A stretch of DNA of 64,000 bases from an uncultured Rhodospirillaceae bacterium. Its GTDB lineage: Bacteria; Pseudomonadota; Alphaproteobacteria; UBA11136. The stretch is taken from the NCBI GenBank assembly GCA_964486105.1, contig CAZAKR010000013.1, forward strand, positions 537 through 64,536, in the 5' to 3' direction. The position numbers and the translations under genes are program-made. This document shows positions 27,123 through 40,258 of the stretch, piece after piece (within the stretch, counting starts at the first letter, position 1; each line of letters opens with the position of its first letter). A model generated the notes under the pieces. It searched no databases and had not been told where the DNA came from. It worked only from the letters and a program-made list of their open reading frames with translations.

Positions 27123-27938
27123 ATGACCGACCCCCTTTTCCCCGAAGACACGCTTGAACACCGTATCGAGGCCTATGAAAACACGGCTGAGGTAAACGAA
27201 GGCCTGCACGCCCTGTTCACCGCCCAGACCGACCGCATCGCCTTTCTCAAGCGCCACCGGGACTGGGTTGAGGAAAACCGCTGGGGCATGGGCGATAGGG
27301 CCTTTCACTATATGTGGATGCTGATCCTGGCCGATGCGGCGGCGCGGTTTCCCGCCCTCGACCTTCTTGAGATCGGCGTGTTCAAGGGCCAGACAATCTC
27401 TCTATGGGCCCTGATCTCCCGCGAACTCGGGCTCAACGCCTCGATTACCGCCATCTCGCCCTTCGAGGGCAATCTCAAGCCCCAGCCCCGCCTGCTGCAC
27501 AGCCTGCGCAAGAAGCTCGACCCCACCTATCGGGAGGCAAATGCGGTGGGGAATCTCCACGCGATCGACGATTATCTGGCGCGCAACCGGGAAATCTTCG
27601 CCGCCTTTGATCTCGACTTTGCGGCGGTAAAGGCGATTAAGGGCTTTTCCAACGCCCCGGAAGTGACCGCCCGGGTTTCGGGCGAAACCTTTGCCCTGGT
27701 CTATATCGACGGCGACCACACGTTAGAGGTTGCCCGCTCGGATATTGCCACCTATGCGCCCCTTGTCGGCGCCGGGGGGTATCTGATTATGGACGACGCC
27801 GCCTGCTTTCTTCCCGGCGAGACTTTCTGGAAAGGGTTTAAGAGCGTATCCCAGGCCTGCGAGGACATACCCGCACTCGGATTTACCAATGTGCTCAATA
27901 TCGGACATAACCGGATTTTCCGGAAAAACAGCGACTGA
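27123..27938 (+). CDS. Class I SAM-dependent methyltransferase (TylF/CmcI-like O-methyltransferase family)
   Basis: Motifs LLEIGVFKGQTISLWAL and VYIDGDH are present. Confidence 0.65.
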   Translation: MTDPLFPEDTLEHRIEAYENTAEVNEGLHALFTAQTDRIAFLKRHRDWVEENRWGMGDRAFHYMWMLILADAAARFPALDLLEIGVFKGQTISLWALISRELGLNASITAISPFEGNLKPQPRLLHSLRKKLDPTYREANAVGNLHAIDDYLARNREIFAAFDLDFAAVKAIKGFSNAPEVTARVSGETFALVYIDGDHTLEVARSDIATYAPLVGAGGYLIMDDAACFLPGETFWKGFKSVSQACEDIPALGFTNVLNIGHNRIFRKNSD

Positions 27939-28024
27939 ATGCCCCGGCATTTGACTTGAGAGACCCATTTGACCATGATCTCGCCGCCTTTCGGCCCCAA
28001 CCCCGTTTATTAGGAACTCGTGGC

Positions 28025-28639
28025 ATGAACATGAAACGCTTTATTCTTACCCTCCCGATTTGCGCTTTCCTCGCCCTGGCTTTTACAGCCTCAACGGCGG
28101 AAGCAAAACGCAAGGTCAAAAACTGGCCCTGCGAGTCGTCCCTGACCGAGGACATTTCCGCCGAAGCTGTGTGGAGCCCACCGCCGGCGCTGGACCCGTC
28201 CTGGCAGGAGGATGAGGGTGTGCGCACGGTCGTGCAGTATGCGGTTAATCCGGAAAACCCGCCGAGTGGAGGCAGGGATGCCATTGCCGAATATGCCGCA
28301 ACGCTGGGCCCCGACAAGGACAAGAAACTGGTACAGATCTTTACCGGAATCCTGGAAGAGATGAACACCTTCCATGACATCATCGTCGCCGGTATTCGGA
28401 ACTTTATCATCAAGGCCAAGGTCCTCGAAAGCATGGTCGAGGAGAACGACGCCGAACTCAACGACCCCAATGTGGATGAAAAACGCAAAGCCGACGTCAA
28501 GGAAGCGCGGTTCTGGAATTTCGCCAATATGGACGACGCTGAGGAAGAAGCAGAGTTCCTCTGCACCCGCTATGACTATGTGGAAAAGAAACTGAGCAAG
28601 CTGACCGAACAAATCCGCTCTGAAATGACGAATAAATAA
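28025..28639 (+). CDS. Secreted hypothetical protein (signal peptide MNMKRFILTLPICAFLALAFTASTAEA)
   Basis: The ORF track lists 27956..28639; the signal-peptide start is internal. Confidence 0.5.
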   Translation: MNMKRFILTLPICAFLALAFTASTAEAKRKVKNWPCESSLTEDISAEAVWSPPPALDPSWQEDEGVRTVVQYAVNPENPPSGGRDAIAEYAATLGPDKDKKLVQIFTGILEEMNTFHDIIVAGIRNFIIKAKVLESMVEENDAELNDPNVDEKRKADVKEARFWNFANMDDAEEEAEFLCTRYDYVEKKLSKLTEQIRSEMTNK

Positions 28640-28680
28640 GCCGGCGATTTATCCAAATCAGATCAAACAGCTATCCTGAA

Positions 28681-28716
28681 AGGGCCACGGCTTAATTGCC
28701 GCGGCCCTTTTTTGTC
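28681..28716 (+). terminator. Rho-independent terminator
   Basis: The hairpin GGGCCACGGCttaattGCCGCGGCCC is followed by TTTTTT. Confidence 0.5.
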
Positions 28717-28861
28717 AGCTCACGGTCAATTACAACATTATATATCTGTGAAATATCAATCGCTTATAAGGATGCATAAAATTGTTCACAATTTATGTTG
28801 CCTTTTATTCCCCAGCGGTTAAAAATCCATACTTCTTCAGGGGGGGGACAACCTTGTCATT

Positions 28862-28897
28862 TCTAGGGAAAAAAACCTCTCTAGGGAAAAAAACCTC
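28862..28897. repeat. Perfect tandem duplication of the 18-nt unit TCTAGGGAAAAAAACCTC, 130 nt upstream of the PQQ dehydrogenase start
   Basis: The duplication is read directly. Additional CTAGG/CTTAGGG motifs occur at about 28930 and about 29012, flanked by G7-G8 runs. Confidence 0.6.
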
Positions 28898-29029
28898 GAT
28901 ATCCTCTTAATTGAGGGGGGTGAGAAATCCTAGGACCGTGACGAGGGGGTAACAAAAAAACCGGACGGGGCTCACCCCTGAGAGTCAGACGTCCCACTCG
29001 CGACTTGAACCCTTAGGGAGGAACACTCT

Positions 29030-30682
29030 ATGAGAGGTAAATCACTTCTTGCTGCTGCAATTCTTCTGGGCGGCGCCCACGCAGCTTCTGCTGGCGATCA
29101 TGCTGATTGGCTCAGTTACGGCGGTGACCTTGGTCAGACGCGCTATGTGACCGAGAAGCAGATCAACACCGGCAACGTAAAAAATCTTAAGGTCAAATAC
29201 ATTTTCCAGACTGGCGTCATCGGGTCTTTCCAGGTTACCCCGATCGTTCAGGATGGCGTAATGTATGTTACCACGCCTTACAACCATGCCTTTGCCCTTG
29301 ACGCCAAGACCGGCAAGCAGCTGTGGCACTACGAGCACAAGCTCGGCACCACTATCTTCTGCTGCGGCCCAAACAACCGTGGCGTCGGCATTGATAGCAA
29401 CAACGTCTATATGGCAACCCTCGACGCCATGCTGATCGCGTTGAACAAAAAGACCGGCGAACTGGTTTGGGAAACAGAGATTGCTGATCCCGAGTTCGGT
29501 TATTCCGAAACCCTTGCTCCTATCGTTTACAAGGGCAAGGTCATCGTCGGTATTTCCGGCGCCGAATATGGTATCCGCGGTTTCATCACCGCCTATGACG
29601 CCAAAAGCGGCAAGAAAGCCTGGCGCTGGCACACTATTCCGGCCCCCGACGAAGCTGGTCCGGACGGTGTTAAAGGCTGGGAAGGCACCTATGGCAACAA
29701 AGCCGATGGTATCAACCCGCTCAACCGCGACGTTGCGGCTGAAAAGGCTGCTGTTGCTTCCGGCAAGTATAAGGATGCCTGGAAGTATGGTGGTGGTTCC
29801 AACTGGATGAGCAACACCATTGATACCAACACCGACCTCATGTACGCCACGCTCGGCAACCCGTCACCTGATCTCGACGGTTCGCTGCGTCCGGGCGACA
29901 ACCGCTGGTCGGATTCCATGGTGGCGCTTGACGTCAACACCGGCAAGCTCAAATGGGCTTACCAGTACATCCCCCATGACGTGTGGGATCTGGATTCCGT
30001 TTCTCCGCCGATCCTGGCCGAAGCCAAGGATAAGAACGGCAAGAACCGGAAAGTCGTGGTTCACGGCGGTAAAACCGGCTGGGTCTACATCCATGACAGG
30101 GCCACTGGTGAACTGATCCGTCGCTCGGATCCGATGGTTCCCCACGAGAACCTGTTCGCACTGCCGACCGAAGGCCAGGGCACGCGCATGCTGCCGGGCG
30201 CCAATGGTGGTGTCGAATGGTCGCCGGGCGCCTACAGCCCGAAGACCGGCATGGTCTATTACGCCAATCTGCACCAGCCCATGCACTATGAAGTCAAGTC
30301 TGTGCCTTGGGAAAAGGGCAAGCTGTGGCTCGGCGGCGCCTTTAAGGCGATCCCTGGCGAAGACCAGTGGGGTAACGTCGTCGGTGTTGACCTCAATACC
30401 GGCAAGATTGCCTGGGAGCACAAAACCGACGAACCGATGATCGGCGGAACCCTTGCAACCGCTGGCGGTCTTGTCTTCACCGGTGAGGCCAACGGTAACT
30501 TCCTGGCGCTTGACGCCAAGTCGGGCAAGAAACTCTGGTCGTTCCAGGCCGGTGCCGGCGTTAATGCCGCGCCGATGTCCTTTACCCTTGACGGCAAGCA
30601 GCACATCGCTGTCGCCGCCGGTGGTAACGCCCAGATCAACGCCAAACGGGGTGACGCGGTTATCGTGTTCACTCTCGACTAG
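29030..30682 (+). CDS. PQQ-dependent alcohol/methanol dehydrogenase family (8-bladed propeller quinoprotein), periplasmic
   Basis: Present are a signal peptide (MRGKSLLAAAILLGGAHAASA), W-motif propeller repeats, a vicinal disulfide (CC in FCCGPNNRG) and the segment PHDVWDLDS (a D-x-D arrangement at the catalytic Asp). Confidence 0.9.
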   Translation: MRGKSLLAAAILLGGAHAASAGDHADWLSYGGDLGQTRYVTEKQINTGNVKNLKVKYIFQTGVIGSFQVTPIVQDGVMYVTTPYNHAFALDAKTGKQLWHYEHKLGTTIFCCGPNNRGVGIDSNNVYMATLDAMLIALNKKTGELVWETEIADPEFGYSETLAPIVYKGKVIVGISGAEYGIRGFITAYDAKSGKKAWRWHTIPAPDEAGPDGVKGWEGTYGNKADGINPLNRDVAAEKAAVASGKYKDAWKYGGGSNWMSNTIDTNTDLMYATLGNPSPDLDGSLRPGDNRWSDSMVALDVNTGKLKWAYQYIPHDVWDLDSVSPPILAEAKDKNGKNRKVVVHGGKTGWVYIHDRATGELIRRSDPMVPHENLFALPTEGQGTRMLPGANGGVEWSPGAYSPKTGMVYYANLHQPMHYEVKSVPWEKGKLWLGGAFKAIPGEDQWGNVVGVDLNTGKIAWEHKTDEPMIGGTLATAGGLVFTGEANGNFLALDAKSGKKLWSFQAGAGVNAAPMSFTLDGKQHIAVAAGGNAQINAKRGDAVIVFTLD

Positions 30683-30744
30683 GTAAGTGGGATTTTGTGC
30701 CGGCTCTGAAAAGGGCCGGCACAATTCTCATCTTTAAGATCGGG

Positions 30745-30775
30745 AACGGGGGCCTTAGGGCCCCCGTTCTTTTTG
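30745..30775 (+). terminator. Rho-independent terminator after the PQQ dehydrogenase gene, preceded by a second hairpin at 30697-30722
   Basis: AACGGGGGCCttaGGCCCCCGTT is followed by CTTTTTG. The upstream hairpin GTGCCGGC...GCCGGCAC is perfect. Confidence 0.6.
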
Positions 30776-30900
30776 AATACCCCCCAAATTTTTGGTAAAT
30801 ACCCCAATTTCCGCCTTATTTACCCTTTAACTTATTGACTGGAACATGCAGTTCGGGTTTTCTCCCCCGGCACGCCCCCAAACCAAGGACTTTTAAAAAG

Positions 30901-31485
30901 ATGAAGTTCACCAACCCGCTTAAATTTATCCGCCCCATGGCGACACTGGCCCCGGCCTTTCTCATGGCCGTCACCGCCTTTTCGCTGCCCGCCCAGGCCG
31001 AAGAAGAGTTCCTCCCGAGCTGGATGAAACCCGATGCCGAAGCCAAGACCGTTGATATGGATATCGTCTCCGGCTTCAACGGCAATTCCGGCGCCCTTAA
31101 TTTCAACGGTTATTACGAGGGCAATGCGACAATCGTCGTGCCGGTGGGATGGAAAGTGAAAGTTGCCTTCCGCAACCAGGATGGCAACATTCCCCATTCC
31201 ATGGCCATTACCGAGCCCTATGCTGAAGACGATTTCCCCCTTGATGCCGGCCCCAAGGCCGTCGCCATCAAGCGCGCCTATTCGCGCTCGCCGATAACCG
31301 GGCAGTCGGCCACAGAGAAACCCGATACGGTCAAATTCAAGACCAAGAAGGCCGGTGATTATTATTTGTTCTGCGGCGTCACCGCCCACGGCCAGGCCGG
31401 CATGTGGATCCACTTCAAGGTCTCGGATACCGCCGAAGGCCCGTCCCTGATCGTCGGCGACGATTCTACCGACGGACGGAAATAA
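30901..31485 (+). CDS. Periplasmic cupredoxin (type-1 blue copper protein, pseudoazurin/amicyanin-like)
   Basis: A signal peptide ends AQA. Ligand spacing H...C-x4-H-x4-M is present in YLFCGVTAHGQAGMWIHF, with an upstream His in IPHSMAI. Confidence 0.7.
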   Translation: MKFTNPLKFIRPMATLAPAFLMAVTAFSLPAQAEEEFLPSWMKPDAEAKTVDMDIVSGFNGNSGALNFNGYYEGNATIVVPVGWKVKVAFRNQDGNIPHSMAITEPYAEDDFPLDAGPKAVAIKRAYSRSPITGQSATEKPDTVKFKTKKAGDYYLFCGVTAHGQAGMWIHFKVSDTAEGPSLIVGDDSTDGRK

Positions 31486-31511
31486 CATCTATCCAGACCC
31501 GGATCATGGAT

Positions 31512-31550
31512 GAAAAAAGCCCGCCCCTGATAAGGAGGCGGGCTTTTTAT
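31512..31550. terminator. Bidirectional rho-independent terminator between convergent genes
   Basis: The hairpin AGCCCGCCCCtgataaGGAGGCGGGCT is flanked by A6 and T5. Confidence 0.65.
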
Positions 31551-31579
31551 TATCTTATCGCCAGAGATGGTTGGCGGGA

Positions 31580-31930
31580 CTAGAAGCGACAGAGCTCCTC
31601 GCGCTTGCTGTTCTTGTTTACCGGATCGATCGTCGTCTTGGTAACGACGAAAAGATGCTTGCCGTCCTCGAATTCCAGCAGCTTTTTGATCTTCTCATTA
31701 TATTGATAGAACTTGATGTCGCAGCGTTCGAATTCCGACGACATTTCTTCCGTCGCAGCGCCGTAGAATTCACCGCGATAGGCCCGATCCCCCTTCGATC
31801 CATCATCATTTTTCTCATAAACGAAAATCATCATCGGATCGGGCCCGCCGGTCGCCATAAGGGGCGCCGACAACGCCATAAAGGTGCCTAAAACAACACT
31901 TGATATCAATAACTTAGAACGTTTTACCAA
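31580..31930 (-). CDS. Secreted small hypothetical protein
   Basis: The 116-aa protein has an N-terminal signal-like helix. The gene has lower GC content than its surroundings. Confidence 0.45.
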   Translation of the reverse strand: MVKRSKLLISSVVLGTFMALSAPLMATGGPDPMMIFVYEKNDDGSKGDRAYRGEFYGAATEEMSSEFERCDIKFYQYNEKIKKLLEFEDGKHLFVVTKTTIDPVNKNSKREELCRF

Positions 31931-31951
31931 AATCTTTCTCCAGTTTGTGTC

Positions 31952-32212
31952 TTATTCCGCCGGCTCCGGCGCCATGTCCAGGGCATGGAGATAGAGGGTC
32001 AGAATCTCTTCCTGCTCAAGGCGGTCCTGAACGTCTATTTTACGCAATTTCACCACCTGACGCATCACTTTCACGTCAAAACCGCTGGCCTTTGCCTCTG
32101 AAAAAATTTCACGGATATCGGCTGTAATTGTCGCCTTTTCCTCTTCCAAACGTTCAACCCGCTCGATAAATGACCGCAATTGGTCTCCAGCGATGTTGCC
32201 TGTTGCCGCCAT
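31952..32212 (-). CDS. gapR: DUF2312 family protein (GapR-like nucleoid-associated protein)
   Basis: QLRSFIERVERLEEEKATITADIREIFSEAKASGFDVKVMRQVVKLRK matches the GapR/DUF2312 coiled-coil pattern. Confidence 0.65.
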   Translation of the reverse strand: MAATGNIAGDQLRSFIERVERLEEEKATITADIREIFSEAKASGFDVKVMRQVVKLRKIDVQDRLEQEEILTLYLHALDMAPEPAE

Positions 32213-32346
32213 ACCCGTTACTCCCTGATGATCGTGTTTATGGATTACCTGATACCCGATACGGGCCGGCGGAAGATAGCCCCCACGCGCATTCGGCGCA
32301 AGACGGGGAAAGGGGTTTTTTACCCTTTAAAAGAAGATCGCGAAGG

Positions 32347-32667
<321 letters not shown>

Positions 32668-34766: not shown

Positions 34767-36191
34767 ATGCGACGCTTACGCAACACAAAAATAGTTGCCA
34801 CTCTCGGCCCCACATCTTCTTCCCCCGATGATATCGAAGCCCTGTTTGCGGCGGGGGCGGACGTCTTTCGCCTGAATTTTTCCCACGGGCTCCACGACGA
34901 GCACAAAAAGCGGCTCTATCATATCCGCCAGCTGGAGAAGAAAACCGGGCGGCCGATCGGTGTTCTGATGGACCTGCAAGGCCCCAAGCTGCGCCTTGGC
35001 GCCTTTGCCAAGGGGCCGGTGACACTCAAGGCGGGAGAGGCCTTTCGTCTCGATCTGACAGACAAGCCCGGCACCTCCAAACGCGCCCCCCTGCCCCATA
35101 AAGAGGTCTTCTCCTCACTGAAAAAGGGAACCGACCTTCTGCTCGATGACGGCAAGGTGCGCCTGCGGGTGGAAAAAGCAGGTAAGGGTTTTGCCGACAC
35201 AAAGGTTATCACCGGCGGCAAGCTGTCCGACCGCAAGGGCGTCAACATTCCCAATGCCCTGATCAATGTTTCAGCCTTTACCGACAAAGACCTCAAGGAT
35301 CTGGAGTTCGGCGTCGATATGGGCGTTGACTGGGTGGCGCTGTCTTTCGTCCAGCGGCCCGAGGACATCCGCAAGGCGATCAAGCTTATCGACGGCCACG
35401 CCGGCATCCTGACCAAGCTTGAAAAGCCGCTGGCGATCGAGAAACTTGACGAAATTATTGAATTGTCCGACGCCATCATGGTGGCCCGTGGCGATCTCGG
35501 CGTCGAAGTGCCGCTCGAAGAAGTGCCGATACTTCAGAAAAAAATTATCCGCGCCTGTCGAACCGCCGGCAAACCGGTGGTGGTGGCCACCCAGATGCTC
35601 GATTCGATGGTCCATGCCCCGGCCCCGACACGGGCCGAGGCCTCCGACGTCGCTACCGCCGTCTATGACGGCGCCGATGCAGTGATGCTGTCGGCCGAAA
35701 CGGCGGCAGGCGACTATCCCATCGAGGCCGTCCATACCATGGACAGGATTATCCATGGCGTTGAGCGCGACCCCTCGCACCAGCTGATCATGAACAGCAG
35801 CCATCCCGACACTCAACCAACGACGTCGGACGCCATCAGCGCGGCGGCGGCCAAGGTTGCTGAAACGGTGTCGGCGGCGGCCATCGTCACCTGTTCGAAA
35901 TCCGGCGCCACCGCCCGGCGCGTTTCCCGCGAGCGGCCGGCCGTTCCTATCCTCAGCCTATCTGCCGAGCGCTCAACCGCCCGCCAGCTCTCCCTGGCCT
36001 GGGGCGTCCATTGCGTGCACACAACGGAAGTGCAGAGTTTCTCGGACATGGTGGCCAAGGCGGTGCGGATCGCCAGGCAAGAGGATTTCGCCAAGAAAGG
36101 CGACCATCTGGTGGTTACCGCCGGGGTTCCCTTCGGCACCTCGGGCGCGACAAATATCCTGCGAGTCGCCGACGTCCCCGACGGGGAATAA
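34767..36191 (+). CDS. pyk: Pyruvate kinase
   Basis: The 474-aa sequence begins MRRLRNTKIVATLGPTSSSPDDIEALFAAGADVFRLNFSHG. Confidence 0.95.
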   Translation: MRRLRNTKIVATLGPTSSSPDDIEALFAAGADVFRLNFSHGLHDEHKKRLYHIRQLEKKTGRPIGVLMDLQGPKLRLGAFAKGPVTLKAGEAFRLDLTDKPGTSKRAPLPHKEVFSSLKKGTDLLLDDGKVRLRVEKAGKGFADTKVITGGKLSDRKGVNIPNALINVSAFTDKDLKDLEFGVDMGVDWVALSFVQRPEDIRKAIKLIDGHAGILTKLEKPLAIEKLDEIIELSDAIMVARGDLGVEVPLEEVPILQKKIIRACRTAGKPVVVATQMLDSMVHAPAPTRAEASDVATAVYDGADAVMLSAETAAGDYPIEAVHTMDRIIHGVERDPSHQLIMNSSHPDTQPTTSDAISAAAAKVAETVSAAAIVTCSKSGATARRVSRERPAVPILSLSAERSTARQLSLAWGVHCVHTTEVQSFSDMVAKAVRIARQEDFAKKGDHLVVTAGVPFGTSGATNILRVADVPDGE

Positions 36192-37506
36192 TTTCTAGCT
36201 GTTTTTTTGTTTTCAGCCCCGGTGGCGGCGGGCCGCCGCTGGCCCAATCGAGAAGCTCCACCGTATGGGCAAGGGGCCCATCCACATGGGCCGCCATCTG
36301 AACCAGACAGCCGATATTACCCGCTGCGATCACCCGCACCCCGAGATTTTCGAAATGCCCCGCCTTGCGTGCGCCGAGCTGTCCGGCCAATTCGGGCTGA
36401 AGCAGGTTATAGGCGCCAGCCGAGCCGCAACACAGATGAGCCTCATCGGGTTCAACAATTTCAAACCCGGCGTCCTTCAAAAGCGTCATCGGTTCGGTCG
36501 CGATCTTTTGGCCGTGGCGCAGGGAACAGGCGGCCAGATAACCCACCCGCAACCCGTTTACCGGCGAAACCGCCGGCCTTTGAAAACCAATCTCAGCCAT
36601 GATTTCGCTGACATCGCGGGCCAGAGCCGATATTGCGGCGGCGCGCCCGGCCCATTGGGCATCGCCGCTTAAGAGAAACCCGTAATCCTTGACCATGGTG
36701 CCGCACCCCGAAGCATTGATAACAATGGCGTCGAGGCCGCCCTCAGTGATCACGCTCTCCCAGGCCGCCACATTGGCGCGCACAGAGGCGAGCGCCGTCT
36801 CAACCTCTCCCATATGGTGAGCCAGCGCGCCGCAACAGCCCTGATCTGCGGCAACGACCACCTCAAGACCATGACGGGTCAGCAGACGGATGGTGGCGGC
36901 GTCAATGGCCGGGCGCAGGGTTTCCTGGACACAGCCGGTAAGAAGCGCCACCCGCATCCGCCGCTCGCCTTCGGCCGGATAAATGCCGGGACCGGGAGGA
37001 GAATCAGACTTGTCGCTAAATCCGGCAGGCGGCAGCAGAGCCGGGAAGGCCCCCAGGCTTTTAGGCAGAAAGCGGCTGAAAGGAGCCGCCAGACGCGCCA
37101 GAGCGAGCAGCGGCCGCATAAGCCCCGGCCGGGGCAGCACCGCCAGGATGAAACGGCGCAACCGTCTCTCTCCCCGGGGGCGGGTATGGGTGGCCGCCAC
37201 GTGCCCCCGGGCATGGTCGATAAGATGCATGTAATTCACCCCTGAGGGACAGGTGGTCATGCAGGACAGGCAGGACAGACAACGGTCAAGATGGCGCACG
37301 ACTTCCTTTGATGCCGGTTTATCCCCTTCCAGCATATCCTTGATGAGGTAAATGCGCCCGCGGGGCGAATCCAGCTCATCACCGAGAAGGACATAGGTCG
37401 GACAGGTGGCAAGACAGAACCCGCAATGGACGCAGGTGCGCAGGATCCGCTCCATTTCCTGTAAATCGCCATCGGCCAGACGGGCCAGGCTGAAATTAGT
37501 CTGCAT
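36115..37506 (-). CDS. glcF: Glycolate oxidase iron-sulfur subunit GlcF
   Basis: Two 4Fe-4S ferredoxin motifs (CVHCGFCLATCP, CLSCLSCMTTCP) and CCG domains are present. The listed 3' end overlaps pyk by 77 nt. Confidence 0.9.
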   Translation of the reverse strand: MQTNFSLARLADGDLQEMERILRTCVHCGFCLATCPTYVLLGDELDSPRGRIYLIKDMLEGDKPASKEVVRHLDRCLSCLSCMTTCPSGVNYMHLIDHARGHVAATHTRPRGERRLRRFILAVLPRPGLMRPLLALARLAAPFSRFLPKSLGAFPALLPPAGFSDKSDSPPGPGIYPAEGERRMRVALLTGCVQETLRPAIDAATIRLLTRHGLEVVVAADQGCCGALAHHMGEVETALASVRANVAAWESVITEGGLDAIVINASGCGTMVKDYGFLLSGDAQWAGRAAAISALARDVSEIMAEIGFQRPAVSPVNGLRVGYLAACSLRHGQKIATEPMTLLKDAGFEIVEPDEAHLCCGSAGAYNLLQPELAGQLGARKAGHFENLGVRVIAAGNIGCLVQMAAHVDGPLAHTVELLDWASGGPPPPGLKTKKQLEIIPRRGRRRLAGYLSRPRCRREPRR

Positions 37507-37519
37507 ACCGCCCTGCCCC

Positions 37520-38770
37520 TCACACGCCTTCGTACATGCGGCCGGGGTTAAAGATGTGGAGAGGGTCGAAGCTCTCCTTTACCCGCGCCGTCAGCGCTTT
37601 TAGGGAGATGGGCTGGGGCTGGAAAACCTGGGTACCGGCCCGCAGGGCGGGAGAACCGCGAAAAAGCAGGGCCTGCCCCCCCATGGCTTCCCCCCGCGCC
37701 TCAAGGGAGCGGCGAATGACCGCCGCCCCGCCATCGCCTTCGAGCGGCGGCGAATCGGGGGCCAGCCAGACAAGCCCGCCGCCCCAATCGTAAAAAACGC
37801 GTGAGGGAAATTTTTCCCTCACATCCGCGACAAGGCCGGGGGCCTGGGATGGGGGCAGCGACAGGCGCCATAAAAGATTTTCCCCCCCCTTCCCGTCCCC
37901 GGGCAAAAACGGCGTCACATCGCGGATATTGCGCCAGAAAACATCACAATCGGCACCGCTCAATTCATCGCTTTTCCCAAACTCCGAAAGCAGGGTTGAA
38001 AGGCTGCGGCAGCGCTCGGCGACCGAGGGTGCGGGGCCTTCGACCCGCAGCGCCGTCGTGCCGCCAGAGGAGATGGCAGATATTGCAGTGGCCAGAGGAA
38101 CCCCGGCCGGTAAATGGGCGGCAGCGGAAACCCCTCCATCACTTTTCAGGGCCTCGGTCATCGCCGCAAGCGCCGATACATCATCAAGGCCGGAAAGAAA
38201 GACGGTGCGGGTGGTTTCCGCCACGGGCATCACCTTAAAGGTGAGTTCGGTCATCACCGCCAGAGTGCCGTGGGACCCGGAGAGAAGTTTGCACATATCG
38301 TAACCGGTGACATTTTTGACCACACGGCCGCCTGAGAAAATGGCCTCACCCCGGCCGTTGACCATCTTCAGCCCGAGCAAATGGTCGCGCGCCGCGCCGG
38401 TGTGAATACGGCCAGGCCCGGAGATATTATCGGCAAAAATGCCGCCGATCGTCGCCTTTCCAGCTTGCCCCCCGAAGAGCGGCCCGTAATCGGCGGGCTC
38501 GAAAGCCAGACGCTGGCCTTTTTCCAGAAGTCGTCGCTCAACCTCGGCCAGCGGCGTGCCCGCCAGGGCCGACATCACCAGTTCGCCGGGCTCGTAAAGG
38601 GTGACCCCTGAGAGCCCGCTCAGATCAAGCCTGTGTTCCGTATCCAGGGGCCGCCCGAGCCCCCGCCTGGTCCCCGCCCCGGTGATCTCCAGGGGCGTTT
38701 TACCAGCCGCAGCCCAGGCAACGATTTCCCTTACCTGTTCAGGATTTGTGGGAGAGAAGATTTCCACCAT
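37520..38770 (-). CDS. glcE: Glycolate oxidase FAD-binding subunit GlcE
   Basis: A 416-aa FAD-binding PCMH domain sits between glcD and glcF. Confidence 0.85.
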   Translation of the reverse strand: MVEIFSPTNPEQVREIVAWAAAGKTPLEITGAGTRRGLGRPLDTEHRLDLSGLSGVTLYEPGELVMSALAGTPLAEVERRLLEKGQRLAFEPADYGPLFGGQAGKATIGGIFADNISGPGRIHTGAARDHLLGLKMVNGRGEAIFSGGRVVKNVTGYDMCKLLSGSHGTLAVMTELTFKVMPVAETTRTVFLSGLDDVSALAAMTEALKSDGGVSAAAHLPAGVPLATAISAISSGGTTALRVEGPAPSVAERCRSLSTLLSEFGKSDELSGADCDVFWRNIRDVTPFLPGDGKGGENLLWRLSLPPSQAPGLVADVREKFPSRVFYDWGGGLVWLAPDSPPLEGDGGAAVIRRSLEARGEAMGGQALLFRGSPALRAGTQVFQPQPISLKALTARVKESFDPLHIFNPGRMYEGV

Positions 38771-40258
38771 CTAGAAGCGCGGCAAATCCGGGAAAGGCAG
38801 CTTTCCCTCGTGAACGTGAACGCGACCGAGCTCCACACAACGATGGAGGGTTGGGAAAACCTTGCCGGGATTGAGAAGAGATTTGGGATCGAAGGCGCAT
38901 TTCACCCGCTGCTGCTGGTTTAAATCCTGCTGGCTGAACATCTCTTCCATCAGATCCCGCTTTTCCACCCCGACCCCGTGTTCGCCGGTCAACACGCCGC
39001 CGACTTCGACACAGAGTTTGAGGATATCGGCGCCTAAAGCCTCGGCCTTTTCCAGCTCACCCGGCACATTGGCGTCATAGCAGATCAGAGGGTGAAGATT
39101 GCCGTCCCCGGCATGAAAGACATTGGCGATCCGCAACCCGTAAGACCGGGACATCTCATTCATCCTTTTGAGAACTTCCGGCAGGCGGCCCCGGGGAATG
39201 GTCCCGTCCATGCAGTAATAATCGGCGGCGATCCGCCCGATCGCAGGAAAAGCCGCCTTGCGCCCGGCCCAGAAACGCTCTCGTTCCTCGTCACTGGCAC
39301 TGGCCTTTATGGTCGTCGCATTACGGGTTTCGGCGAGCTTTGAGATAAGCCCGACAAGGTAATCAACCTCGCTTTGCGGTCCATCCAGCTCGACGATAAG
39401 CAGGGCCTCTACGTCGAGGGGATATCCGGCATGGACGAAGTCTTCGGCGGCATGAATGGCCGGACGGTCCATCATCTCCATACCGGCGGGAATGATCCCC
39501 CCGGCGATGATGTCGGCGACACAGGCCCCGGCAGATTCTACTTCCCCAAAGCCAAGCAGCAGGGCGCGGGCGGTCGCCGGTTTCCTTAATATCCGCACCG
39601 TCACCTCGGTGACGACGCCCAAGAGCCCCTCCGATCCCGTCAAAAGGCCGAGCAAATCGTATCCCCCGGCATCAAGATACCGCCCACCCAGGCGGATCAT
39701 GTCGCCGTTTATCAGAACCACCTCAATCCCGAGCACGTTATTGGTCGTCAGGCCGTATTTGAGACAATGAACGCCGCCGGAATTCTCGGCAATGTTGCCA
39801 CCGATCGAACAGGCGATCTGGCTCGATGGGTCCGGAGCGTAATAGAACCCCTCTCCTTCGACGGCCTGGGTAATCGCCAGATTTGTCACGCCGGGCTGGG
39901 CGACAACGCAACGGTTGGCGTAATCGACTTCAACGATCCGGTTAAGTTTTCCCGTGCCTAAAAGAATCCCGTCGGCAAGGGGAAGAGCGCCACCCGAGAG
40001 CGAGGTCCCCGCCCCGCGGGGCACCACCTTTATGCTATTCTTGTGGCAATACTGAAGGACAAGCGCGACCTGGGCCGACGTTCGGGGCAGGGCAACGATC
40101 ATCGGCATCTGACGATAGGCCGTCAGGCCGTCACATTCATAGGCCCGGCGCTCGTCTTCACCGGTCAAGAGAGAGCCGGGGGGAAGAATATCCCCCAGAT
40201 CCGCAATGAACTCTTCCCGGCGCTCTAATATGCGACGATCCGGATCGGGCATCCGCAT
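38771..40258 (-). CDS. glcD: Glycolate oxidase subunit GlcD (FAD-linked oxidase)
   Basis: The 495-aa protein has FAD-binding type 4 and FAD-oxidase C-terminal domains. Confidence 0.9.
   Translation of the reverse strand: MRMPDPDRRILERREEFIADLGDILPPGSLLTGEDERRAYECDGLTAYRQMPMIVALPRTSAQVALVLQYCHKNSIKVVPRGAGTSLSGGALPLADGILLGTGKLNRIVEVDYANRCVVAQPGVTNLAITQAVEGEGFYYAPDPSSQIACSIGGNIAENSGGVHCLKYGLTTNNVLGIEVVLINGDMIRLGGRYLDAGGYDLLGLLTGSEGLLGVVTEVTVRILRKPATARALLLGFGEVESAGACVADIIAGGIIPAGMEMMDRPAIHAAEDFVHAGYPLDVEALLIVELDGPQSEVDYLVGLISKLAETRNATTIKASASDEERERFWAGRKAAFPAIGRIAADYYCMDGTIPRGRLPEVLKRMNEMSRSYGLRIANVFHAGDGNLHPLICYDANVPGELEKAEALGADILKLCVEVGGVLTGEHGVGVEKRDLMEEMFSQQDLNQQQRVKCAFDPKSLLNPGKVFPTLHRCVELGRVHVHEGKLPFPDLPRF

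Follow-up and report, generated by a model that had tools for sequence, protein, structure and literature searches.

A cupredoxin gene in the acceptor position of a putative type 9 PQQ dehydrogenase suggests replacement of a c-type cytochrome by a blue copper protein

The stretch of DNA considered here, referred to as the window, comprises 64,000 nucleotides of contig CAZAKR010000013.1 from an uncultured Rhodospirillaceae bacterium. Between positions 28025 and 31485 it carries the genes of a secreted helical protein, a periplasmic dehydrogenase dependent on pyrroloquinoline quinone (PQQ) and a secreted type-1 (blue) copper protein, which on balance we take to form a three-gene periplasmic oxidation module of a Rhodospirillaceae-like alphaproteobacterium. 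The copper protein, a cupredoxin, is encoded directly behind the dehydrogenase, in the position where many related dehydrogenases have the gene of a di-haem cytochrome c. The alternation of these two unrelated one-electron carriers in the acceptor slot is best read, from gene order and phylogeny, as a non-orthologous acceptor replacement, in which copper has probably replaced haem as the electron acceptor of the dehydrogenase. A short note made from the sequence of the window alone (the original prediction) had already proposed the cupredoxin as the partner of the dehydrogenase, and the conserved downstream position and the exclusivity with respect to the di-haem cytochrome c support that proposal.

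The comparison drew on 8 loci from genomes, 80 from metagenomes (the best 80 of at least 584 matches) and annotated plasmid loci, with dehydrogenases 51-91% identical to that of the window. Partner genes were scored by targeted tblastn; an all-against-all BLAST clustering of the neighbouring open reading frames (ORFs) was dropped because it was partly confounded by spurious antisense ORFs in the GC-rich loci. The partner slot was tallied over 91 related loci. Immediately behind the dehydrogenase, the cytochrome is found in 51 loci and the cupredoxin in 19, both in none and neither in 11, the remaining 10 loci having too little sequence. In the 19 cupredoxin loci the gene follows the dehydrogenase directly and in the same orientation, at distances of -44 to about 240 bp (218 bp in the window), and the linkage persists down to 55% identity of the dehydrogenase and 32-40% identity of the cupredoxin. 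The cytochrome-type partner is a protein of about 180-195 residues with two CxxCH motifs and two Cytochrom_C domains, and is annotated as a c-type cytochrome in the cultured Ideonella dechloratans and Alloyangia pacifica. In the reference clusters, too, an acceptor cytochrome gene follows the dehydrogenase gene, as XoxG follows XoxF5 in locus L096 and a cytochrome c follows a Burkholderia alcohol dehydrogenase in locus L097.

The phylogeny of the dehydrogenases was obtained by neighbour-joining from 94 enzymes, with 100 bootstrap replicates and XoxF5 as the outgroup. All cytochrome-linked dehydrogenases fall together in one clade, with every cupredoxin-linked enzyme outside it, in 100 of the 100 replicates. 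Because the cytochrome and the cupredoxin are mutually exclusive in one slot and the cytochrome-linked enzymes form one clade, a swap of the acceptor is proposed. We consider a functional link between the cupredoxin and the dehydrogenase likely, judging from this conservation of gene order.

It could be argued that the cupredoxin belongs to the same pathway but acts one step later, after a cytochrome c encoded elsewhere, or that it feeds another enzyme. The known type I PQQ-dependent alcohol dehydrogenases (PQQ-ADHs) use a c-type cytochrome, the precedent of azurin discussed below passes through a haem domain, and pseudoazurin and azurin act one step later in some respiratory chains. Moreover, the window is only 64 kb long and the general family of SoxE-like cupredoxins works in other contexts. 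However, the identical slot and the mutual exclusion over 70 loci form the pattern of a replacement and not of an added carrier, and the window contains no credible CxxCH protein, its sole CxxCH ORF being spurious (84 residues). A later position of the cupredoxin is in our opinion rather unlikely. The features of the module on which the acceptor replacement and the following comparisons are based are these:

28025-28639 (+): upstream partner gene; product secreted, all-helical, about 204 residues, 'DWPC...C' family; likely start ATG 28025, mechanical ORF from TTG 27956
28682-28713 (+): terminator-like hairpin and T-run after the upstream gene (gggccacggc..gccgcggccc tttttt), conserved in the relative L099
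28712-28741 (+): sigma-70-like match, TTGTCA-18-CATTAT, 9 of 12 positions; a consensus match only
29030-30682 (+): dehydrogenase gene, periplasmic PQQ-dependent enzyme of the methanol/ethanol family, 550 residues, about 529 in the mature form
29360-29365 (+): vicinal Cys111-Cys112, the disulphide ring of PQQ-ADHs (translation FCCG at 29357-29368)
29987-29995 (+): Asp320-Leu321-Asp322, catalytic Asp and extra lanthanide-type Asp (translation PHDVWDLDSV at 29972-30001)
30695-30724 (+): intercistronic hairpin 1, no clear T-run, identical in L099
30744-30774 (+): intercistronic hairpin 2, 11-bp GC stem at 30744-30769 with TTAG loop, then TTTTT at 30770-30774
30901-31485 (+): cupredoxin gene, secreted type-1 copper protein, SoxE/rusticyanin-like, 194 residues (Pfam SoxE, AlphaFold2, Foldseek)
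31195-31197 (+): His99, the fourth copper ligand, invariant in homologues
31372-31404 (+): copper-ligand loop Cys158-x4-His163-x4-Met168 (translation CGVTAHGQAGM)

The start of the cupredoxin gene at ATG 30901 (MKFTNPL...) is that used by gene callers and by the homologues, while the mechanical ORF begins at TTG 30835. A signal peptide (...SLPAQA|EEEF) is present. The secreted cupredoxin with a complete type-1 ligand set that had been predicted is borne out, all four ligands, His99, Cys158, His163 and Met168, being invariant among 22 cupredoxin homologues. The protein scores 59.2 bits with Pfam SoxE against a cut-off of 21; with the NCBIfam equivalog models of sulfocyanin (TIGR03094) and rusticyanin it scores 63.6 and 29.2 bits, far under the respective cut-offs of 168.4 and 146.7. 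By these scores it carries the SoxE domain, yet it is not a sulfocyanin proper. The AlphaFold2 model has a predicted local distance difference test score (pLDDT) of 87.5 and an all-beta core, and Foldseek matched it best with rusticyanin (E 4e-7), then with CuA domains and plastocyanin, at a probability of 1.00. The rusticyanins, the best structural matches, and the sulfocyanins share with it the His-Cys-His-Met type-1 copper site and the SoxE domain. They differ in that the present protein is bacterial, of neutrophile type and Sec-secreted, scores below the equivalog cut-offs, and does not belong to a SoxM oxidase or an iron-oxidation chain.

Several other arrangements of the cupredoxin were noticed. 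In L022 (871-1416, minus strand) and L027 (327-845, minus strand) the cupredoxin gene is upstream on the opposite strand, outside the downstream slot, and Glu stands in place of the axial Met of the copper site (HAIKGEWI and HALAGEWI, respectively). In one subclade, L016 (1622-2653), L018 (2595-3662) and L024 (6532-7329), the cupredoxin ORF has an extra C-terminal segment of about 70-100 residues (...YDGHAWRRL...EKLALLSGFL...), which is either a fused domain or an artefact of ORF calling. The idea that cupredoxins of this family follow PQQ dehydrogenases throughout was rejected, only a subset being dehydrogenase-linked. In the Gemmatimonadaceae-type loci L090, L091 and L092 and on one JGI contig, a SoxE-like cupredoxin, a PF00127 copper protein and an unannotated protein of about 160 residues form a conserved trio. 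The trio adjoins two-component or PAS-LuxR regulators, near a Rieske/pyridine-nucleotide oxidoreductase, and in its gene content looks like a separate copper-protein electron-transfer module.

The dehydrogenase scores 494.3 bits with NCBIfam TIGR03075 ('PQQ-dependent dehydrogenase, methanol/ethanol family'; cut-off 480.05) and 297.7 bits with the Pfam PQQ model PF01011 (E 2.6e-88; cut-off 26.7). Its sequence thus makes it almost certainly a PQQ dehydrogenase of the methanol/ethanol family, in agreement with the original prediction. It has a Sec signal peptide with cleavage at MRGKSLLAAAILLGGAHAASA|GD, and neither a haem domain nor a CxxCH motif. The closest solved structures are those of PedH (6zcv, E 3e-86) and XoxF (6dam), both lanthanide enzymes. 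The residue identity is about 37% with an annotated XoxF5 and below 40% with XoxF, MxaF and PedH. In 91 of 100 bootstrap replicates the family stands apart from the XoxF5 outgroup; the enzyme does not cluster with XoxF (clades 1-5), and neither xoxG nor xoxJ is present in the window. On this sequence evidence it belongs to none of the XoxF, MxaF and PedH groups.

A protein that is 69% identical to the dehydrogenase, SAJ59294.1 in GenBank, is named 'pqq-dependent alcohol dehydrogenase type 9', and it is through this name that we provisionally place the clade as the already named Keltjens type 9 PQQ-ADH. For Beijerinckiaceae strain RH AL1 there is mention of a 'subgroup 9 PQQ ADH' (PMC10848612). 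In a literature search of incomplete coverage we found no characterised type 9 enzyme, nor the phrase 'type 9' PQQ-ADH. The original prediction had described a short enzyme of a less-studied clade. The mature chain of about 529 residues, compared with 570-630 in the reference enzymes, and the outcome of the literature search agree with this, whereas the clade itself already has a name; both the clade and the D-x-D motif discussed below are known and are not new here. The 90%-identity cluster of the dehydrogenase consists of proteins from metagenome-assembled genomes (MAGs) of 'Rhodospirillaceae bacterium', and the exact sequence is also present on an 80-kb metagenome scaffold. In the gammaproteobacterial MAG Bco_10 (L008, 8001-9070) the dehydrogenase is found in three frames or pieces, probably as a pseudogene or through an assembly frameshift; the DWPC-family gene is still present upstream of it.

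It is important to compare the metal site of the dehydrogenase with those of the well characterized enzymes. The metal ligands given by the alignment are Glu179, Asn277 and Asp320, with the extra Asp322. The segment W-D-L-D is in register with W-D-F-D of PedH (6zcv) and W-D-Y-D of XoxF (6dam), while in the Ca-dependent MxaF structures (1w6s, 2d0v and 1lrw) it aligns with W-D-Y/F-A. In MxaF numbering Asn277 corresponds to Asn261, Asp320 to the catalytic base Asp303, and Asp322 to Ala305. Residues Cys111, Cys112, Glu179, Asn277, Asp320 and Asp322 are invariant in 26 close homologues and in all 91 aligned family members; the first five of them, which align with MxaF, XoxF and PedH, are invariant in 94 of 94 aligned sequences. 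The vicinal Cys-Cys and the D-x-D at the catalytic Asp, both named in the original prediction, were confirmed by translation; the prediction was to fail if the D-x-D lay off the metal position, and the alignment places D-L-D in register with it.

According to Good et al. (bioRxiv 10.1101/2020.02.25.964783), XoxF1 requires the extra Asp to bind La and to be active, and ExaF requires it to function; this Asp was proposed as a lanthanide marker. The coordinating residues point to lanthanide dependence for the majority of PQQ ADHs (PMC10848612). From the conserved residues the metal site of the dehydrogenase is, with good confidence, predicted to be of the lanthanide type. An enzyme that uses Ca2+ or another metal in spite of the D-x-D, or a non-catalytic or differently specialised quinoprotein, appears improbable. 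Such an enzyme would be compatible with the outcome of the literature search for type 9 enzymes, with the presence of Lys348 throughout the family where MxaF, XoxF5 and PedH carry Arg, and with the lack of lanthanide uptake genes in the window. It does not agree with the invariance of all four metal ligands, including the diagnostic Asp, in the 91 family members, nor with the requirement for the extra Asp in both XoxF1 and ExaF. In addition, the family of the adjoining gene occupies the lutG position of lanthanide-utilisation clusters, and the 'subgroup 9' gene of strain RH AL1 responds slightly to Nd (PMC10848612).

The two hairpins that had been predicted between the dehydrogenase and cupredoxin genes are present at 30695-30724 and 30744-30769, the second followed by TTTTT. 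The stretch 30683-30800 (118 nt) folds at -62.1 kcal/mol, with z = -7.4, and none of 200 shuffled sequences folded as well. The intergenic DNA was compared with that of L099, a relative with a 91%-identical dehydrogenase protein; the two regions are about 90% identical, and the sole change within the hairpins is in the loop of hairpin 2. A strong GC hairpin, often with a T-run, was found between the two genes in all 15 of the cupredoxin loci that were folded. The sequences of these hairpins are unrelated, so that the feature is conserved and not the sequence. Similar hairpins precede the cytochrome gene in many loci of the sister clade. In the original prediction, hairpins acting as full terminators were to mean that the cupredoxin is unrelated to the dehydrogenase; this is not a valid test, since the hairpin occurs in 15 of 15 cupredoxin loci and in many cytochrome loci. 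Because the layout of hairpin and then partner gene is family-wide, the intercistronic hairpin is no argument against a link between the genes. The hairpins probably act by partial termination or by stabilisation of the 3' end, which would set the ratio of enzyme to carrier.

These comparisons also bear on the view that the genes are mere neighbours, with full terminators for hairpins and a cupredoxin engaged in general respiration or copper handling. In favour of this view, hairpin 2 and its T-run resemble a complete terminator, the genes are 218 bp apart, and the flanks of the module are of housekeeping type. On the other hand, the gene order is kept while the cupredoxin diverges to 32% identity, and the genes overlap or nearly touch in L013 and L024. 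In the sister clade the cytochrome c gene is preceded by hairpins of the same architecture, and the intergenic DNA is as well conserved in L099 as stated above. We regard a chance neighbourhood as very unlikely.

The sigma-70-like match at 28712-28741 is the only one that a simple consensus scan gave in 28000-32500. It comes after the terminator-like hairpin of the upstream gene, about 290 nt ahead of the dehydrogenase start, and, by its sequence, may be the promoter of the dehydrogenase, followed by a long conserved leader. The last 75 nt or so before the start (28955-29029) are nearly invariant between the window and L099 and more conserved than the coding sequence, and they hold a nested stem (GGACG-GGGG CTCA CCCC-...-CGTCC). 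This segment may be a regulatory leader, judging from the comparison of these two sequences. In the conserved region upstream of the dehydrogenase there is also a perfect 18-nt tandem duplication at 28862-28897 (tctagggaaaaaaacctc, twice), flanked by G-runs, where L099 carries the unit only once; the duplication could affect the 5' leader or the promoter region. The palindrome AAATTGTTCACAATTT upstream of the dehydrogenase was considered as an operator and dropped, as it is not conserved in L099. A search of 27800-32300 with Rfam gave nothing above threshold. The double hairpin matched the Burkholderia small RNA ncS16 below threshold (36.3 against 48 bits), which was set aside as a generic resemblance between two-hairpin structures, and the other matches were weaker noise.

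The gene upstream of the dehydrogenase proved to be a second conserved neighbour. The original prediction had seen no gene besides the cupredoxin with a link to the dehydrogenase; this was wrong, as the upstream gene is directly ahead of the dehydrogenase in 9 of the 12 loci of the window clade, which was recovered in 100 of 100 bootstrap replicates. The upstream protein is 100% identical to the 204-residue protein P0121. No Pfam or NCBIfam model matches it or its family, which by profile search contains 467 clusters at 50% identity. Only Trp34, Pro35, Cys36 and Cys180 are invariant across 56 diverse members, and this suggests a disulphide. The AlphaFold2 model (pLDDT 86.5) is all-helical with a long helical hairpin. 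A fold could not be assigned from the Protein Data Bank, where there was no match at E < 0.1 and only generic helical bundles (PA28, BAR domains and IpaB) were returned. The subfamily of the window has its own invariant acidic motif, MDDAEEEAEF. The proposal of this motif as a family-wide lanthanide site was weakened, because it does not extend beyond the window subfamily, the wider family retaining just the DWPC...C residues.

The surroundings of the other members of this family are of interest for its function. In two metagenome loci the DWPC gene comes after genes of a PQQ-system substrate-binding protein, a beta-propeller protein, an ATPase of the ATP-binding cassette (ABC) type and a PedC-type permease, and before pqqBCDE. 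In another metagenome locus it is beside a PQQ-ADH and cytochrome cL-like, MoxJ-like and CXXCW proteins, and in a further locus beside the formaldehyde-activating enzyme Fae. The relative L103/L104 has the same triad as the window with pqqBCDE adjoining. In 116 plasmid records of Sinorhizobium, Rhizobium, Azospirillum, Phyllobacterium and Microvirga a DWPC member is annotated as 'hypothetical protein'. In Phyllobacterium and Microvirga the gene abuts that of a PedC/LutF-type permease, and the Phyllobacterium member matches positions 28031-28636 of the window (tblastn, E 1.7e-15). These sequence contexts indicate that the upstream gene is from a widespread unnamed family accompanying PQQ dehydrogenase systems; our literature search, with the coverage stated above, found no report of this link.

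In Methylorubrum extorquens AM1 the gene lutG is part of the cluster lutABCDEFGH and encodes an 'exported protein'; without it, growth on methanol with La slows from a rate of 0.16 to one of 0.03 per hour (PMC7391723). The ABC systems of lut and of the Pseudomonas ped cluster are homologous (PMC6850437). By gene position only, the DWPC family is probably the family of the LutG position. Its members share with LutG the place immediately after a PedC/LutF-type permease in Microvirga, Phyllobacterium and metagenome loci, and the description of an exported protein right after such a permease is true for the members in L100, L107 and L108. The gene of the window differs in being detached from ABC transporter genes and paired with the dehydrogenase, and in the MDDAEEEAEF motif of its subfamily. 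The link of a 467-cluster unnamed family to PQQ/lanthanide gene clusters offers a testable handle on LutG-type proteins.

The sequence features, the family assignments, the gene order, the mutual exclusion of the two kinds of partner and the split in the tree are observations. The mechanism built on them is inferred, from the use of a lanthanide and the direct passage of electrons, with its direction, to the part played by the upstream protein and the action of the hairpins. In it, an eight-bladed type 9 PQQ dehydrogenase, most likely with a light lanthanide and PQQ, would oxidise some alcohol or aldehyde. The reduced cofactor, PQQH2, would be re-oxidised in two one-electron steps by the secreted type-1 copper protein, which would stand in for the c-type cytochrome dedicated to this task elsewhere (XoxG, ExaB/PedF or, in the sister clade, the di-haem cytochrome) and carry the electrons on to the respiratory chain. 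The potentials of cupredoxins are 150-680 mV and those of PQQ proteins about 90-100 mV (PMC6315138); therefore, the transfer from PQQ to copper would be downhill. By analogy, the DWPC/LutG-like protein probably assists in metal or cofactor supply or in maturation of the enzyme, and the terminator-like hairpins probably set expression ratios and would not insulate unrelated genes.

Several points weigh against this reading. The sampled loci are not phylogenetically independent, given the selection of the metagenome matches. The 11 loci with neither partner in the slot include two gammaproteobacterial members of the superclade of the window, and in L003 the cupredoxin is 6.3 kb away. The SoxE-like cupredoxin fold is that of a general carrier, and the wider family (about 40% identity, Gemmatimonadaceae) is unlinked to PQQ dehydrogenases. 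An unlinked cytochrome cL could lie elsewhere in the genome, the negative result covering the 64-kb window only. Hairpin 2 looks like a full intrinsic terminator, the simple scan gave no promoter match between it and the cupredoxin start, and co-expression is unproven. Furthermore, the D-x-D motif predicts lanthanide use without proving it, and the equation of the upstream family with LutG was made by gene position.

In its most far-reaching form the proposal would be of a self-contained, haem-free lanthanide module of three proteins, in which the LutG-like protein hands the lanthanide or PQQ to the type 9 enzyme and electrons pass directly from PQQ to the copper of a dedicated, rusticyanin-like cupredoxin without any cytochrome. 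We offer this form only tentatively and consider it doubtful as a whole. If it is true, the alternation of cytochrome and cupredoxin would be an evolutionary copper-for-iron swap comparable to that of plastocyanin and cytochrome c6, possibly related to scarcity of iron in the habitats of the cupredoxin-bearing lineages.

The module may be compared with the known systems. With XoxF-XoxG-XoxJ it shares the periplasmic eight-bladed PQQ enzyme, the Cys-Cys pair, the Glu/Asn/Asp ligands with the extra Asp, and an acceptor gene immediately downstream. The dehydrogenase is, however, of the low identity to XoxF5 given above, about 50-70 residues shorter and has Lys348 for Arg, and the acceptor slot holds a cupredoxin, with no xoxG or xoxJ in the window. 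With PedH/ExaF and their cytochrome c550 (PedF/ExaB) the common features are the closest solved structure, that of PedH, and the D-x-D in register; the differences are the separate clade, the non-cytochrome partner and the absence of a two-component or ped regulatory context in the window. The sister subclade, from Ideonella dechloratans, Alloyangia pacifica, Paraburkholderia, Caballeronia and many soil metagenomes, has dehydrogenases 53-58% identical to that of the window, an invariant active site and the same layout of a hairpin followed by the partner gene. It differs in the di-haem cytochrome c partner and in a secreted ankyrin-repeat protein, and has neither the cupredoxin nor the DWPC-family gene.

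This ankyrin-repeat protein, of about 220 residues, adjoins the dehydrogenase in the cytochrome-linked sister clade (L093, L094 and about 45 metagenome loci, for example L026, L034 and L042), and its gene is usually divergent and upstream. Genes of a TonB-dependent receptor and a cytochrome b561-like protein are also recurrent in these loci.

Methylamine dehydrogenase, likewise a periplasmic quinoprotein, has in amicyanin a cupredoxin acceptor of its own that is encoded together with it. It differs from the dehydrogenase described here in its tryptophan tryptophylquinone cofactor, its unrelated fold and its gene cluster. To our knowledge, a dedicated c-type cytochrome receives the electrons in all type I PQQ alcohol or methanol dehydrogenases characterised so far, and database names such as 'alcohol dehydrogenase (cytochrome c)' were given to the present family on that assumption. 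Azurin is the natural acceptor of the type II quinohaemoprotein alcohol dehydrogenase (PMC8348568), which is likewise a PQQ-ADH with a cupredoxin acceptor; in that enzyme a fused haem c domain relays the electrons, whereas here they would go directly from PQQ to copper. Nearest to the present pairing are the thaumarchaeal PQQ dehydrogenases hypothesised to reduce blue copper proteins (PMC7300363). Within the coverage of our literature search, no report was found of a PQQ-ADH that lacks haem and has its own cupredoxin encoded next to it, nor of an alternation of cytochrome and cupredoxin within this enzyme family. The original prediction that a cupredoxin partner would be unusual stands in so far as no such pairing was found, and has to be qualified by the partial precedent of azurin.

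If direct transfer from PQQ to copper is true, it would be the first in the class of type I PQQ-ADHs. The family would also provide a natural paired comparison, one enzyme family with either a haem or a copper partner, for the study of redox-partner exchange, and lanthanide biochemistry would be extended to uncultured Rhodospirillaceae-like and other lineages.

The remainder of the window was searched for further components by tblastn. As had been predicted for pqq, xoxG and xoxJ, the 64 kb contain no PqqB, PqqC, PqqD or PqqE, no XoxG and no XoxJ; CXXCW protein, SoxYZ-like carrier, Ped/Lut ABC parts, di-haem cytochrome c and ankyrin protein were also not found there. Both flanks of the module are of housekeeping type, one with ThyX, SspB, fumarase, a hydrolase, an epimerase and a methyltransferase. 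The other flank has GapR, DUF1244, GCS2, pyruvate kinase and a GlcDEF-like oxidase. The last of these is encoded at 36115-40258 (minus strand), 5-9 kb from the module, by three adjacent genes with CCG/4Fe-4S, FAD_binding_4 and FAD-oxidase_C domains. From its domains it looks like a glycolate (or D-lactate) oxidase of GlcF/GlcE/GlcD type, and no link of it to the dehydrogenase was found in the other loci.

A small secreted ORF of 99-116 residues at 31580-31930 (minus strand) is convergent with the cupredoxin gene and has no Pfam or NCBIfam match. It is present only in the closest relatives (L009, and as a 92-residue gene in L099) and absent from the other loci. The hairpin region shared by the two genes, at about 31493-31570, gave spurious sub-threshold matches to Thr_leader on both strands. 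Finally, from about 40000 to 64000 the G+C content falls from about 0.60 to 0.48-0.53. In the ORF list this section has large ORFs apparently for sugar-nucleotide and polysaccharide synthesis and ABC-2 export, and it may be a surface-polysaccharide island unrelated to the dehydrogenase module.

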